A stretch of DNA of 8,071 bases from IMG/VR virus record IMGVR_UViG_2778261570_000006; one strand, 5' to 3'. The position numbers were made by a program, and so were the translations under genes. The notes below the pieces were generated by a model. That model had not been told where the DNA came from. It did no database searches and saw only the letters and a program-made list of their open reading frames with translations. Positions 3,023 to 7,132 of the stretch are shown here, piece after piece. Source of the stretch: a virus. Lineage: Duplodnaviria > Heunggongvirae > Uroviricota > Caudoviricetes. Position 1 is the first letter of the stretch, and each line of letters opens with the position of its first letter.

Positions 3023-3321
3023 TACATCTCCTCGATCATCGCATTTGCTACGGCCCGCAGATCTTCCAGTGCACTTTCAACTTTTGGATCTTTTGCGGTC
3101 TCACTGACTTTTTTCATGGCATCAGCCATTCTTTTAATCAGATCATTTGGAGTCTCTTTCGGGTTAGCAGACACCCTGCTGGCCAGCTCCAGTGCAAGAC
3201 GTGCATCTTTTGGTGTAATGCCTTTATCTTTTGCCATCTCTGCTGCCAGCTCAGAAAGCTCGGATGCAAGAGTGAGAACGCTTCTTCCCGTTTTTGACGG
3301 ATATATATCGTGTGTGAACAT
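3022..3321 (-). CDS. Hypothetical acidic, Lys/Glu/Ala-rich helical protein (99 aa); first gene of the leftward early operon
   Basis: Track ORF; ATG 3321..3319 with SD GGAGAGGA ending 5 nt upstream. The antisense ORF 2951..3340 is Ser/Ala/Leu-rich and looks like shadow sequence. No arginine-rich N-terminus, so it is not N-like by sequence. Confidence 0.65.
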   Translation of the reverse strand: MFTHDIYPSKTGRSVLTLASELSELAAEMAKDKGITPKDARLALELASRVSANPKETPNDLIKRMADAMKKVSETAKDPKVESALEDLRAVANAMIEEM

Positions 3322-3558: not shown

Positions 3559-4023
3559 CTATTTCTTCATGCGTTTTTGAGCTGCCAGCATATTTTCAAA
3601 TGCTTCTTTGTAGAGTTCATTCTGACCTTTAAGTCTTTCGATTAGTTTTGCTTTTTCTGATTCGGGAAGGATATCAAAAAGATCTAGTAAATCAGCTTGT
3701 TGCTTGTTAACCATCCGCCAACCTTCGCCTTCGAAACTTTCGTCATAAGTTCCTGAGGAACGGACGTAATTCATCAGATCAGCTAAATCAGGCCTCAACT
3801 CTTCAGGCTTAACTCTTAGTAATACAGCGAATTTTAATGCCGCATCAGTATTAAGTGGAGCCTTTCCGTTGAGATAATGGCTAACCGCAGATTGCGCCTC
3901 AAAACCCATTAGCTCGGCAGCAAGCTCCTGAGTCAGTTTGAGCTCTCTTTTTTTTGCATCCCAGATTGCGCGCAGACGTTGCGTAGCTTCCGGCGATGCG
4001 ATTTCTTCGCGTTTTCTTCTCAT
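3559..4023 (-). CDS. racR: XRE-family HTH prophage repressor (RacR/DicA-like), 154 aa
   Basis: Track ORF. The segment LTQELAAELMGFEAQSAVSHYLNGK looks like an HTH. The C-terminal LPESEKAKL...LAAQKRMKK resembles my recollection of the DicA tail. It is divergent from the Cro-like gene and has its own terminator. The racR symbol is given by synteny; orthology is unverified. Confidence 0.6.
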   Translation of the reverse strand: MRRKREEIASPEATQRLRAIWDAKKRELKLTQELAAELMGFEAQSAVSHYLNGKAPLNTDAALKFAVLLRVKPEELRPDLADLMNYVRSSGTYDESFEGEGWRMVNKQQADLLDLFDILPESEKAKLIERLKGQNELYKEAFENMLAAQKRMKK

Positions 4024-4070: not shown

Positions 4071-4099
4071 TTGATCATTTAAATTAGTATGGTTAATAT
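4071..4099 (+). promoter_or_regulatory. pR-like rightward early promoter
   Basis: -35 TTGATC (4071-4076), 17-bp spacer, -10 TAATAT (4094-4099): the same hexamers and spacing as the leftward promoter. Upstream inverted repeat TTATGAA-N5-TTCATAA at 4033-4051. Confidence 0.45.
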
Positions 4100-4127
4100 T
4101 TTGGTGAGCATTACTGAGGTGACACTT

Positions 4128-4403
4128 ATGACATTAGATGAATATTTGAAAAAAAATCGTGTACGACAGTCTTGTTTGGCCGCGCTGGCTGGTTGTTCGC
4201 AATCAATGATTAGCCTCGCTGCTACTGGACGTAGTCAGTTAAGCCCTGAAAAGGTATTGCGTATCGCAGAGGCTACGAATTTCGAGGTTACACCTCATGA
4301 ACTCCGGCCTGATATCTACCCGAATCCGACCGATGGTTTACCTGTTGGATGTAAGGCTAACACACAAAATACACAGGAGTTGATTCATGAAAATCAGGCA
4401 TGA
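4128..4403 (+). CDS. ydaS: Cro/YdaS-like HTH regulator, 91 aa
   Basis: In frame with track ORF 4089..4403. Start set at ATG 4128 because GAGG (4116-4119) lies 5 nt upstream and the track's ATG 4089 falls inside the predicted promoter. Translation MTLDEYLKKNRVRQSCLAALAGCSQSMISLAATG... The ELRPDI motif fits my recollection of the YdaS family. Confidence 0.6.
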   Translation: MTLDEYLKKNRVRQSCLAALAGCSQSMISLAATGRSQLSPEKVLRIAEATNFEVTPHELRPDIYPNPTDGLPVGCKANTQNTQELIHENQA

Positions 4404-4809
4404 GCACATTGAGTCAGTGCTGTTAGCCCTGGCCGCTGAAAAAGGGCAGGCATGGGTAGCCAGTGCAATTACTGAAGAATATCTGCGCCAGGGAGGCGGC
4501 GAATTGCCCCTGGTACCAGGCAAGGACTGGAACAATCAGCAGAATATCTATCATCGTTGGTTGAAAGGTGAAACGAATGCGCAAAGGGAAAAAATTCAGA
4601 AACTGATCCCAGCAATTCTGGCAATCCTTCCGCGCGAGCTGCGTCACCGACTCTGCATCTTCGATACCCTGGAACGCCGTGCATTACTGGCGGCGCAGGA
4701 AGCGTTGAGTACGGCAATTGATGCGCATGATGATGCAGTCCAGGCCGTTTACCGGAAAGCACATTTCAGCGGTGGTGGAGCGTCCGACGATTCTGTTGTA
4801 GTGCATTGA
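4387..4809 (+). CDS. ydaT: YdaT-like protein (cII-position regulator/toxin family), 140 aa
   Basis: Track ORF; SD AGGAG (4375-4379) 7 nt upstream; overlaps the preceding gene by 17 nt. Translation MKIRHEHIESVLLALAAEKGQAWVASAITEEYLRQGGG... matches my recollection of Rac YdaT; not alignment-verified. Confidence 0.65.
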   Translation: MKIRHEHIESVLLALAAEKGQAWVASAITEEYLRQGGGELPLVPGKDWNNQQNIYHRWLKGETNAQREKIQKLIPAILAILPRELRHRLCIFDTLERRALLAAQEALSTAIDAHDDAVQAVYRKAHFSGGGASDDSVVVH

Positions 4810-4828: not shown

Positions 4829-5242
4829 ATGAAAATCAAACCGTACATAAATGCCGGAAATCTTACTCCCGGCGAACTACGAGACTGGATCCTGAAACTT
4901 GCAAAAAATGCAGAAATTGCGGGTTGGGGTACAGAAACTTCGGTTCGGAAGCTTCAGAGCGCAGAACTTAGCCTGCGCTCAGTTATGGACGATTTATCCC
5001 CAAGAATTAATTTTCTGGGGTCAGAGCAAATAATTCGTTCGGAAGGTCACTCCAGCGAAGTTGCGGAAGTTCTGAATACTCTGAGGATAACGTTTGCTGC
5101 CGTTCGCGATATTCAACGAACCATTCTCTCATTGATTTCTCAGCTTCAAGAAATTGATAGTCGCATTCCTGGCGGGGGTCATAGAGAGCGTCTTCCAGAA
5201 TGTGAAGAGCAAGGACAGGGGAAACAGATAAGGGATCAGTAA
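4829..5242 (+). CDS. Hypothetical protein (137 aa), candidate; its 3' part overlaps a convergent ORF
   Basis: Track ORF starting 19 nt after the ydaT-like stop, with a weak SD (AGGGT, 8-nt spacer). Hand-counted first-codon-position composition over about 60 codons is G/A-rich and T-poor, which is coding-like. Rare AT-rich codons. No recognisable family. Confidence 0.45.
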   Translation: MKIKPYINAGNLTPGELRDWILKLAKNAEIAGWGTETSVRKLQSAELSLRSVMDDLSPRINFLGSEQIIRSEGHSSEVAEVLNTLRITFAAVRDIQRTILSLISQLQEIDSRIPGGGHRERLPECEEQGQGKQIRDQ

Positions 5243-5462
5243 TACGTTTTTCACTTGCCTGGTATAGCAATCTCGCCAGCGAATCATAGCTACTGGGGCT
5301 CAGGAGAGAATCCCGTGAGTGATTTGTAAGAATCAGGTGGAAGCGGGTGAGAACTATAGCCCTGCATGTTACCAGGTTAACCATGTCGTGGTCGTGCTGG
5401 TTAATTTTGTACACAGTGCGCATGTGATTTTTAATTTTTTGGCAAACAGCCATTAAAGACAT
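5007..5462 (-). CDS. Hypothetical protein (151 aa), candidate; convergent with and overlapping the 137-aa ORF by 236 nt
   Basis: Track ORF. A perfect SD AAGGAGGT (complement of 5468-5475) lies 5 nt upstream of ATG 5462..5460, and a perfect -10 TATAAT (complement of 5502-5507) lies upstream of that. No recognisable family. Confidence 0.5.
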   Translation of the reverse strand: MSLMAVCQKIKNHMRTVYKINQHDHDMVNLVTCRAIVLTRFHLILTNHSRDSLLSPSSYDSLARLLYQASEKRITDPLSVSPVLALHILEDALYDPRQECDYQFLEAEKSMREWFVEYRERQQTLSSEYSELPQLRWSDLPNELFALTPEN

Positions 5463-5501
5463 GTCGAACCTCCTTTGGTTCTGTTGATTGGGGAATCACA
5501 G

Positions 5502-5530
5502 ATTATATCCGGAGGAAGGTTCGACACCAG
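5502..5530 (-). promoter_or_regulatory. Candidate promoter for the 151-aa minus-strand ORF
   Basis: Consensus -10 TATAAT on the minus strand, 39 nt upstream of the ATG. The -35 region (CTGGTG) is a poor match. It shares the intergenic space with the RBS of the plus-strand initiator gene. Confidence 0.3.
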
Positions 5531-5541
5531 ATGAGGCAATT

Positions 5542-6678
5542 ATGGTTAAGGCTAAAAACATGCCAAATCCCATGCCAAATCCCATGCCAAAAACTAAGGC
5601 AAACAACGAGCCTTATCGCAAGGTAAAAATAACGATATGGGATGATCCCAAATTTAGGGCGTTATCTCCTCTGCCTCCAAGTGGACAGAGTTTGTTTATT
5701 TATCTGCTGACCAGTCCATTTACCGGGATTATTCCTGGGTTGTTTAAAGCCGGGCGGGCAGCAATGGCTGAAGAGTTGGGGTGGGATATCGAAGCCTTTG
5801 ACTTAGCCTTAGGCGAAGCCATGAATCTTGGCATGGTGAAAGCAGATATCAAAGCCAGAGTTTTTTGGCTCCCGAATGCTGCGAAACACAATCCGCCAAA
5901 CTCGATAAATGTCATTAAATCCTGGGCAAAGGCATTCGCTTTAATTCCTGATTGCCCTCTCAAATGGGAGGCCAGGGAATCGCTGAGAGCCGCGTCCTAC
6001 GGGGTTTCTGAGGCTTTGGGGATGGCATTCGATAAGGCAATCCCTTTGCCTGAGGATAAGCCTAAGGATAAGGCTAACGCTTTGTCATGCGGTATCCAGA
6101 TAACAGATAACAGATATATAAACCCCACACATAACGCGCGCGTGCGCGAGAGTGTTCCGGCCAGTGAGGCAAATGGCGTGCCGTTGCAGACAGCGGAACC
6201 TGATTACCTGGAAGGCCTGAGCGAACCCATCGGGAAATTTCCGATGACCGATGGCTGGCATCCGTCGCCGGATTTTCGACGACGGGCTGCGCTGTGGGGC
6301 GTGGCTCTTCCTGAGCCGGAATTTACACCAGCTGAACTTGCCGCCTTCCGGGACTACTGGACAGCGGAGGGGAAAGTTTTCACGCAGGTTCAGTGGGAGC
6401 AGAAATTCGCCCGTCACGTACATCACGTCAGGGCGCAGGTTAAACCAGTCAGCAAGGGGGGGAACCATGCAGCAACGCCAGGTGGCACCGCATCACGGGC
6501 AGTTCAGGAAATTCGGGCAGCACGTGAGCAGTGGGAACGTGAAAACGGATTTATCCTCGACGGAAACGGCGTGGAAGCTGTGGGAACTCATGGGGGAGGT
6601 TTATTCGAACCGCTGGACCCAGAAGAACGGGGCCGCACCTTCGAAGCTCTGGATTGCACAGATTGGTGCGATGACTGA
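5542..6678 (+). CDS. Phage replication initiator / replisome organiser with DnaT-like C-terminal domain (O / YdaU-position), about 378 aa
   Basis: Track ORF 5488..6678 begins at TTG. The first in-frame ATG with an SD is 5542 (GAGG at 5533-5536, 5-nt spacer). The C-terminal block [43 protein letters not shown] resembles DnaT-like domains as I recall them. The last 212 nt overlap the P-like frame. Confidence 0.6.
5560..5594 (+). repeat. In-frame 12-bp tandem repeat ATGCCAAATCCC, about 2.9 copies, encoding [11 protein letters not shown]
   Basis: Exact copies at 5560-5571 and 5572-5583, and a partial copy at 5584-5594. Each unit starts with an in-frame ATG. Confidence 0.85.
6031..6148. repeat. 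Iteron-like GATAA repeats, AT-rich tract and GC palindrome inside the initiator gene; candidate replication origin
   Basis: GATAAGGC at 6031-6038, GATAAGCCTAAG / GATAAGGCTAAC at 6055-6078, CAGATAA x2 plus CAGATAT at 6097-6117, ATATATAAA, then ACGCGCGCGTGCGCG at 6134-6148. This sits in the predicted linker between the N-terminal domain and the DnaT-like domain. Confidence 0.35.
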
Positions 6679-7132
6679 GCAGCAAATCCGACAGGTCTGC
6701 CGCCAGTGCATGGACCGCTGCCGGGCGGGTGAAACATGGCCTCCGGACCTGGCTGAGTTTGTTGCGCTGATTTCGGAGAGTGGGGCAAATCCATTTGGTC
6801 TGACGGTGGATAACGTGATGGAGGAGTACCGCCGCTGGCGCAACGAGTCCTGGCGATACGACGGGAGCGATAAATACCCGTGGTCTCAGCCCGTGCTGTA
6901 TCACATTTGCCTCGAGATGCGGGCAAAAGGGATTGAGCGTCAGATGACCGAAGGGGAGTTAAAACGACTTGCAGAACGGCAACTAGCGAAATGGGCAAAG
7001 CATGTTGGTGACGGCTTCAGCGTTCCGCCCGTCCGGCGGCAACTGGTAGCACCAAAACGCCCGTCGGGGCCAACTCCAATTGAGTTGCTGAAACAGGAAT
7101 ATGAACGCCGGAAAGCGGCTGGGTTTGTTTGA
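6467..7132 (+). CDS. Lambda P-like replication protein (helicase loader), about 221 aa
   Basis: In frame with track ORF 6251..7132. Start set at ATG 6467, preceded by AAGGGGGGG. The segments [21 protein letters not shown] and the C-terminal part resemble lambda P (ESYPWKS, TMEQV) as recalled. Frame-2 translation upstream of 6467 is Arg-rich junk. ATG 6590 and ATG 6671 are alternative starts. Confidence 0.6.

Follow-up and report, generated by a model that had tools for sequence, protein, structure and literature searches.

A probable lambda-style replication origin with 12-bp-phased repeats in the initiator gene of a Rac-like prophage

The question raised by the locus studied here is whether a phage replication initiator gene carries, within its own coding sequence, the origin at which its product would act, and if so which DNA repeats define it. 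The locus belongs to the IMG/VR virus record IMGVR_UViG_2778261570_000006 (Caudoviricetes), of which a stretch of 8,071 nucleotides (nt), here called the window, was analysed. An earlier reading of the letters alone (the sequence-only reading) had proposed a candidate origin at 6031–6148, in the part of the initiator gene encoding a low-complexity linker, made of GATAA-containing repeats, an AT-rich tract and an alternating GC palindrome, and arranged like ori-lambda inside gene O. The best reading of the region is probably that of a lambda-style origin embedded in the initiator gene, with a new initiator/iteron family and with a repeat phased at 12 base pairs (bp) that was previously undescribed. 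The elements on which this reading is based are the following.

5480–5545, plus strand: conserved leader and left mosaic junction
5542–6678, plus strand: initiator gene, 378 amino acids
5548–5619, within the initiator gene, codon phase 0: array A, six cores at exact 12-bp spacing
5792–5839, codon phase 1: array B, four cores at 12-bp spacing
6010–6093: array C, the main iteron array, seven 12-bp units
6094–6124, plus strand: candidate unwinding element
6120–6167, plus strand: conserved block AAACCCCACACATAACGCGCGCGTGCGCGAGAGTGTTCCGGCCAGTGA, start of the shared right-hand module
6134–6148: alternating purine/pyrimidine GC run of 15 nt, seen in the sequence
6671–7132, plus strand: lambda-P-family helicase loader gene

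The initiator consists of an N-terminal winged-helix domain (the N-domain, about residues 35–166), a disordered linker (about residues 171–220) and a DnaT-like domain binding single-stranded DNA (residues 226–301).

The GATAA repeats are present on the plus strand at 6031, 6055, 6067, 6099 and 6106, so that 5 of the 19 copies in the window fall within 80 bases. When 19 sites are placed at random, at least five in 80 nt are obtained with a probability of about 0.001, and the Poisson value for at least five in one 80-nt stretch is 4e-7. As an iteron, GATAA does not hold, since the five copies are split between two elements and the real unit is a core phased at 12 bp. Three of the copies are the GAT/AAG junctions of the 12-bp array, where GATAAG combines the last three bases of one unit (GAT) with the first three of the next (AAG), and the other two belong to a 7-bp tandem repeat. 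GATAA was rejected as the repeat unit because the literal pentamer is retained in only part of the enteric clade. Tandem Repeats Finder separates the two elements as well, with period 12 at 6048–6077 and a perfect period 7 (CAGATAA, 2.9 copies) at 6097–6116, and independently assigns a period of 12 to each of the three arrays and one of 7 to the tract. The core reads WWGSCW at 12-bp phase in the window and AAGSCTT, a 7-bp palindrome, in distant relatives, the longer unit being WWGSCTWW..G.T in enteric and AAGSCTTYCG in non-enteric loci. The logo of the 12-mers holds 9.2–9.3 bits, against 2.1 bits for in-frame N-domain 12-mers used as a control. All 15 matches to WWGSCW-N6-WWGSCW-N6-WWGSCW in the window (0.01 expected) lie within arrays A, B and C, and three chains of at least three cores at this spacing were seen, compared with none in shuffles. 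Arrays A and B were found with a weight matrix built from the relatives, the window being left out.

The seven units of array C start at 6010, 6022, 6034, 6046, 6058, 6070 and 6082, and read GAGGCTTTGGGG, ATGGCATTCGAT, AAGGCAATCCCT and TTGCCTGAGGAT for units 1–4 and AAGCCTAAGGAT, AAGGCTAACGCT and TTGTCATGCGGT for units 5–7, the last of which is degenerate. The array contains three GATAA copies, and its lag-12 autocorrelation is 0.56, compared with 0.28 ± 0.07 elsewhere. It encodes residues 157–184, at the junction between N-domain and linker, and the proposed location in the linker is therefore right only in part, as the array begins at 6010 in the last helix of the N-domain. The proposed extent was also too short, since the two further 12-bp arrays lie upstream of array C in the same gene, about 220–245 bp apart. 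Array B (AAGCCT, TAGCCT, AAGCCA, TTGGCA) sits where helix 3 of the winged helix is encoded and is kept in nearly all relatives as GAAGCCTTCGAC AAAGCCTTCGGG GAAGCCTTC. Array A (AAGGCT, three times ATGCCA, AAGGCA, GAGCCT) starts 6 nt into the gene, is recognised by Tandem Repeats Finder over 5559–5591, and occurs in enterobacterial relatives only. The window has three ATGCCAAATCCC-type units in this array (5559–5603), while one unit fewer (12 nt) is found in E. coli TUM1881 and in the phage deposited as Actinobacillus phage vB_Apl-pPE4 (L001, PP818812.1; the array at L001 3160–3190), which is 97.7% identical to the window over 5400–6800. This polymorphism in unit number presumably results from slippage.

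Directly beside array C lies the least stable duplex of the gene (6092–6124), the stability of a 30-nt duplex near 6092–6093 being −32.3 kcal/mol compared with a gene mean of −43.5 (standard deviation 3.6). The AT-rich tract of the sequence-only reading is thereby found again, as every other 25-nt stretch of the gene is less AT-rich than the one starting at 6098 (80% AT). The tract at 6094–6124 reads ATCCAG, CAGATAA, CAGATAA and CAGATAT (the repeats occupying 6097–6117, 2.9 copies with 100% matches), followed by ATAAACC, and includes two GATAA copies as well as the right mosaic junction discussed below. Its 7-bp period means that it does not derive from a peptide repeat, and it is indeed out of codon phase and encodes the non-repetitive QITDNRY. 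At the same position the relatives have either CAGWWAR repeats or AATCAG(GARCAG)n, the latter with n = 2–10 after array C in non-enteric relatives, where 55 of 65 loci carry this hexamer form, which encodes EQEQ... in the protein. Array B and the tract are separated by distances that differ in exact 12-bp steps (L012–L041 and the IMG/VR loci), which together with the variation of (GARCAG)n indicates that both types of repeat change by whole units. It may be added that in most enteric relatives and in Rac-SA53 the 7-bp repeats end in AGATCT, with a Dam GATC site (opposite 6111–6119 of the window), and that the window and loci L001, L005 and L011 have AGATAT or AAATAT there, without GATC.

The block that follows the tract (6120–6167) encodes part of the disordered linker. 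It contains AAACCCCACACATA and then CGCGAGAGTG.TCCG.CCAGTGA, which are invariant in five loci with four N-domain types, and the roughly 50 nt after the block are far more divergent. The alternating GC palindrome noted earlier is present at 6134–6143 (ACGCGCGCGT) as a perfect 10-bp palindrome inside the alternating run, and the "terminator-like" matches at 6126–6148 are this palindrome only; a promoter and terminator scan over 5200–6700 gave nothing relevant beyond the shuffled expectation. PPompW and TL-2011b have a shorter version of the run, and in the Citrobacter and Serratia relatives (L006–L010) there is no alternation. Because its conservation is partial, a role for the palindrome is the least secure part of the earlier description.

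Repeats within a coding sequence raise the question of whether it is the DNA or the protein that is being conserved. The repeats encode short repeated peptides (DKPKDKA in the window, KPSGKAS in relatives) and the number of units differs by 12-bp steps between loci, array A of vB_Apl-pPE4 included, which implies that slippage does occur; the arrays could then be a mere by-product of a low-complexity linker, kept uniform by slippage and with no function as DNA. Conservation in relatives was therefore compared at the two levels, using 35 anchorable relatives with the same N-domain, 39–83% identical and aligned to the window, from Salmonella, Citrobacter, Serratia, Stenotrophomonas, Variovorax, Paraburkholderia, Methylomicrobium, Desulfovibrio, Bilophila and others. 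All 35 anchored relatives have array C in one register with a CAG-repeat tract following it, and arrays B and C are retained at these identities in relatives that range from Enterobacterales to Burkholderiales and Desulfovibrio. Within array C (72 nt) of 25 non-enteric loci, most of them GC-rich, Ala is encoded by GCT in 67% of cases compared with 14% in the N-domain, Pro by CCT in 72% (14%) and Lys by AAG in 98% (47%). Fisher tests of these shifts give p-values of 1e-19 to 1e-21, which are not to be taken literally because the loci are related by descent, although the direction and size of the effect are consistent. Array B shows other preferences, with Glu as GAA in 96% versus 41%, Ala as GCC in 91% versus 45% and Lys as AAA in 88% versus 42%. 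The two arrays are read in different codon phases (xAA GCC TTx in array B, AAG SCT Txx in array C), so that opposite synonymous choices yield the same heptamer.

The same is seen in a codon alignment, where third-position conservation reaches 0.80–0.93 in array B (among the enteric loci) and 0.82–0.96 in array C and the 7-bp repeats, against a baseline mostly between 0.55 and 0.75, while amino-acid conservation in array C is 0.54–0.70. Amino acids are thus least conserved at array C and the tract, and third positions most conserved at array B, array C and the tract. A by-product of the linker would account neither for a codon choice that departs strongly from the rest of the gene and in opposite directions in arrays B and C, nor for third positions that are more conserved than amino acids, nor for a 7-bp repeat out of phase; this explanation is largely refuted and we consider it highly improbable. 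The repeats are kept in homologues with the same N-domain against synonymous drift, as the third-position and codon comparisons both show; the sequence-only reading had proposed this check, and named a lack of conservation as a refutation, and the outcome is in its favour. From these alignments it is close to certain that arrays and tract function at the DNA level. In a reverse scan of IMG/VR with three consecutive AAGSCTT-N5 units, 79 of the 120 stretches among the matches listed encode the N-domain, and in 78 of those 79 the array is in or beside it; most of the other matches are perfect tandem 12-mers of unrelated origin.

Function at the DNA level does not by itself tell what reads the repeats, and pairing between the arrays themselves was considered. 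AAGCCUU is complementary to AAGGCUU, and 5792–5814 and 6060–6082 are 83% complementary over 23 nt, so arrays B and C could pair in messenger RNA or single-stranded DNA and regulate expression. This complementarity is however automatic for a palindromic core, and between loci the centre of the array C units may be G or C, whereas nearly all loci have C at the centre of array B, so that no compensatory change accompanies this variation. Long-range B:C RNA pairing was rejected on this absence of covariation, and there is very little chance that it explains the arrays. Across the window, Rfam gave no RNA family.

Binding by a host protein such as DnaA is another way in which conserved repeats could arise, since GGATAA resembles the reverse complement of TTATCCACA, and TTATCCTCA on the minus strand at 6051–6059 is one mismatch away from a DnaA box. 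DnaA-like boxes are nevertheless not enriched (10 compared with 6.3 expected, only one of them in the region), and the site at 6051–6059 is altered to TAAGGATAA in the 97.7%-identical phage. Clusters of TTATNCACA with at most one mismatch, as in a DnaA-box origin, were not found. The arrays, moreover, accompany the phage N-domain in hosts that range from Enterobacterales to Desulfovibrio, and E. coli prophages with other N-domains lack them, which makes host protein sites a scarcely credible explanation.

This association with the N-domain can be followed at the two ends of the region, where the gene is a mosaic. On the left, similarity in the leader, which is common to E. coli prophages whose initiator has a DUF1376 N-domain, stops at the start codon; strain 2013C-3513 and Rac-SA53, for instance, are identical up to ATGG and diverge after it. 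On the right, similarity begins at 6094 for Rac-SA53 and at about 6114–6116 for PPompW and TL-2011b. E. coli prophages with other N-domains thus have two parts in common with the window, the leader as far as the ATG and the right-hand module beginning at 6094–6116, and between them repeats of their own: to the left of the right junction are ACCCAAA repeats in PPompW, 19-bp GTAACGC...GCGTTAC palindromes in TL-2011b, and TGTTCAAACA/TGTTTGAACA in Rac-SA53. A search with query 5480–6150, which takes in the candidate origin together with the leader and the sequence coding for the N-domain, gave the same picture in E. coli: most of 820 records match only query positions 1–57 or 1–66 (corresponding to 5480–5545) at 89–97% identity, and a smaller group matches only positions 615–671. 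At least 80% of the query is carried by 38 of 5426 complete E. coli genomes. Chains of the 12-bp core were absent from all the loci whose initiator has another N-domain.

Selection on the arrays and tract at the DNA level is thus accompanied by strict co-inheritance of the arrays with the N-domain. Because similarity to other initiator types ends at both junctions, the N-domain and arrays A–C form one exchangeable cassette (5546 to about 6113) flanked by conserved DNA, which is the classical picture of a specificity module that carries the binding sites of its initiator along with it. Very likely the arrays are bound by their cognate N-domain, as this accounts most simply for their co-inheritance. 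The tract and block at 6094–6167 could also be regarded as a mere recombination joint whose conservation reflects recent exchange, since similarity to three other initiator types starts there, a second joint lies at the start codon, and such mosaicism is typical of lambdoid phages. A joint would nevertheless leave the arrays and their conservation in distant taxa unexplained, and the 7- or 6-bp CAG-repeat tract stays beside array C even where the C-terminal module differs (L011 and the non-enteric loci). We therefore find it improbable that the segment is no more than a joint; as joint and origin coincide in lambdoid phages, the two readings are in any case compatible.

The features of the encoded proteins were examined for agreement with a lambda-style origin. 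In an AlphaFold model based on a 77-sequence alignment, residues 40–170 have a predicted local distance difference test score (pLDDT) above 90 and winged-helix topology, with residues 157–166 (nt 6010–6039) forming the last helix of the N-domain. Confidence drops from about residue 171 (residues 171–180 averaging a pLDDT of 50) and is below 50 for residues 176–216 (nt 6067–6189), while the C-domain is again confidently modelled. The H-S-H-H-S-S topology and the fold similarity to solved winged-helix domains identify the N-domain as a winged helix. It has no family match in Pfam or NCBIfam, and matches the PHROG families "replication initiation protein", "DnaD-like helicase loader" and "replisome organizer". 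The initiator falls neither in Pfam Phage_rep_O, the family of lambda O, nor under the full-length DnaT equivalog (NCBIfam NF002770). The downstream product matches Pfam PF06992 (60.8 bits, cut-off 26) and phrog_109 ("P-like helicase loader"), and is similar to lambda P by BLASTP (E = 6e-7). Its start is taken at 6671, following the annotation of homologous records, and there is an overlap of 8 nt with the stop of the initiator gene (ATGACTGA). Upstream, the frame of this gene is open as far as 6251, out of frame over the 3' end of the initiator gene, and the Pfam match to the P family starts at about nt 6632; in addition, phrog_15931 (482 positions) is one profile that matches both the C-terminal part of the initiator and the P-like protein. 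That the frame reaches so far upstream may be due to chance in a GC-rich sequence; alternatively, some phages may have the two genes joined.

Array C is located in the initiator coding sequence at the boundary of the DNA-binding domain, direct repeats go with the cognate N-domain and are absent with other N-domains, and an easily unwound tract adjoins the repeats. With this architecture, the region is rather likely to be an origin that opens at 6094–6124. The N-terminal winged-helix domain would bind the arrays of short sites (WWGSCW or AAGSCTT, 12 bp apart), and loading of the array would distort the DNA and open its least stable tract, with the 7-bp CAGATAA repeats and ATATATAAA, the opening being limited by the GC-rich block at 6120–6167. 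In the last step, the host DnaB helicase would be recruited to the open DNA by the DnaT-like domain and the lambda-P-like protein, in the manner of lambda O and P. The claim of a lambda-like origin in the initiator gene thus stands for the layout and for the P-family loader downstream, and fails for the initiator, which is no lambda O homologue.

Several observations weigh against this reading. The AT-rich tract is short (about 30 bp) and is replaced in non-enteric relatives by (GARCAG)n, of about 50–67% GC; conservation of the GC palindrome does not extend to relatives sharing the N-domain; and the p-values of the codon counts are overstated through shared descent. At the protein level, helix 3 of the winged helix has no basic residues, Pfam gives the N-domain no family, and the comparison of the initiator with lambda O by BLASTP (E = 1.1) shows no homology. 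Arrays A and B, finally, are without counterpart in ori-lambda and could serve another purpose. These last arrays are also what would be expected if the initiator bound its sites mainly for control (autoregulation, roadblock, handcuffing or titration) and the real origin were elsewhere. Array A occupies the beginning of the gene (start codon and first 25 codons) and array B lies inside the coding region, which are odd places for origin iterons, and ori-lambda has a single array. Plasmid initiators commonly autoregulate through their own repeats. Array C, on the other hand, adjoins the least stable duplex of the gene and lies at the position where the other prophage initiators of this mosaic family bear their own repeats, as in the layout of ori-lambda, and control and origin roles are not mutually exclusive. 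A main role in control, with the origin located elsewhere, is unlikely, and in the lambda-style origin arrays A and B may contribute to cooperativity, looping or autoregulation.

A more extended assembly, in which all three arrays act together over about 550 bp of the initiator coding sequence, the codons for helix 3 included, and produce a single-stranded tract by strain, is possible but doubtful. The seven units of array C measure 84 bp, that is 8 helical turns, from which it follows that initiators on sites phased at 12 bp would need to untwist the DNA to line up; this geometry, a matter of arithmetic, is put forward only tentatively. The strain would then pass to the sequence-specific tandem-repeat tract (CAGWWAR in enterics, (GARCAG)n elsewhere), which would be read as single-stranded DNA, as DnaA-trios are. 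If true, the three-array design would be distinct and widespread in phages of Enterobacterales, Burkholderiales, Xanthomonadales, Methylococcales and Desulfovibrionales.

Comparison with known systems places the element close to ori-lambda in its arrangement. As in ori-lambda and in the origins of the Shiga toxin (Stx) phages 933W and P27, it is found in the middle of the initiator gene, between the DNA-binding and the loader-recruiting parts, and the Stx phage origins have 6 iterons. Also as in ori-lambda, initiator-specific repeats are followed by an A/T- and purine-rich tract, and a P-family loader gene is immediately downstream (PMC7466680); in both cases a flexible part of the protein is lengthened by the residues that the repeats encode. 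The lambda iterons bind O and the AT-rich tract is the site of DNA opening (PMC7466680), the iterons being four 18-bp sequences with dyad symmetry at 39034–39118 in gene O, annotated at spacings of 20, 24 and 23 bp. The window instead has 6–7 units at exactly 12 bp, compared with a period of about 21 bp in lambda, with a core of 6–7 bp, and iterons of 18–19 bp with dyad symmetry, 20–24 bp apart, are not what its element consists of. It further differs from ori-lambda in the two extra upstream arrays, in a C-domain that is DnaT-like rather than that of O, and in an easily opened tract made of a tandem repeat (7 bp, or 6 bp in relatives).

The Rac prophages (K-12 and Rac-SA53) have the same gene order (repressor, ydaS, ydaT, initiator, loader), and ydaU of Rac-SA53 shares the right-hand module from 6094 with 92.6% identity. 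K-12 ydaU has the TGTTCAAACA/TGTTTGAACA palindromes, then GATACAGATAAAGATCTAAAAACAGATC and a G/C block, which is the same layout as in the window, although the Rac initiators have a DUF1376 N-domain, different repeats and no 12-bp core chain, and the K-12 loader YdaV is DnaC/IstB-like compared with P-like in the window. In the K-12 sequence (L165 3040–3160), GATACAGATAAAGATCTAAAAACAGATC has two GATC sites and is followed by a C7...C7G5 block. By its layout, this part of ydaU (3040–3160) may correspond to oriJ, reported as an active origin of E. coli K-12 Rac (PMC3945230), and likewise described as active by Potrykus 2000 in so far as that work is cited in PMC11014345. A literature search combining oriJ with iterons gave no match, and a paper on non-lambdoid Stx replication regions makes no mention of DnaT-like initiators or repeats.

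In SPP1, oriL also has direct repeats inside gene 38 and an AT-rich unwinding element, and is bound by the replisome organizer gp38 (PMC6316719). The N-domain of the window is weakly but significantly similar to the "replisome organizer" and DnaD-like phage families, over about 90–120 residues at 26–38% identity; host phylum, repeats and loader (gp39 in SPP1) are different. A similar pairing is known from DopC and DopE, a domesticated O/P-like pair (Brezellec et al. 2017, PMC5509034), in which the initiator-like partner combines a helix-turn-helix N-domain with a DnaT C-terminal motif and the other partner belongs to the P family. DopC is nevertheless a chromosomal protein with an HTH_36 N-domain, and iteron-like sequences were not found in its locus by the authors (PMC5509034), whereas the arrays are prominent in the window. 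By analogy, the element would work by a layout like that of the lambda, SPP1 and oriJ origins, yet it does not belong to lambda O or ori-lambda by sequence.

The probable origin and its binding motif concern an uncharacterised phage initiator family without a Pfam DNA-binding domain family, which occurs in prophages of many Proteobacteria and some Desulfobacterota, and such origins could be annotated with a simple DNA pattern. The dual coding is unusually clean, one DNA heptamer being written in two codon phases by opposite synonymous choices, and the limits of the putative specificity cassette (5546 to about 6113) are marked in Rac-like replication modules, including those of Stx-phage-associated prophages. 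The interest is moderate for specialists of phage replication, the main use being in annotation and in studies of dual coding.

As a whole, the window represents the region for immunity and replication of a Rac-like lambdoid E. coli prophage, with the following genes around those described above.

3559–4023, minus strand: repressor gene
4089–4403: ydaS-like gene
4387–4809: ydaT-like gene
4829–5242, plus strand: open reading frame (ORF) without known function
5007–5462, minus strand: ORF without known function
downstream of the lambda-P-family gene: DUF1627 gene

The two ORFs between ydaT and the initiator gene are on opposite strands and overlap by about 235 nt. The plus-strand one matches phrog_37051 (unknown function) end to end, the minus-strand one has no match in Pfam or PHROG, and the record of vB_Apl-pPE4 annotates both. 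This phage, deposited as infecting Actinobacillus pleuropneumoniae, contains the E. coli Rac-like ydaS/ydaT/initiator module and is 97.7% identical to E. coli prophage DNA as well, and its host attribution looks doubtful. In the short intergenic leader directly upstream of the initiator gene there is a perfect 10-bp inverted repeat (TGTCGAACCT / AGGTTCGACA, 5462–5471 and 5517–5526) with arms 45 nt apart, the right arm of which is within the part of the leader that is conserved in hundreds of E. coli genomes, where it precedes a different type of initiator.

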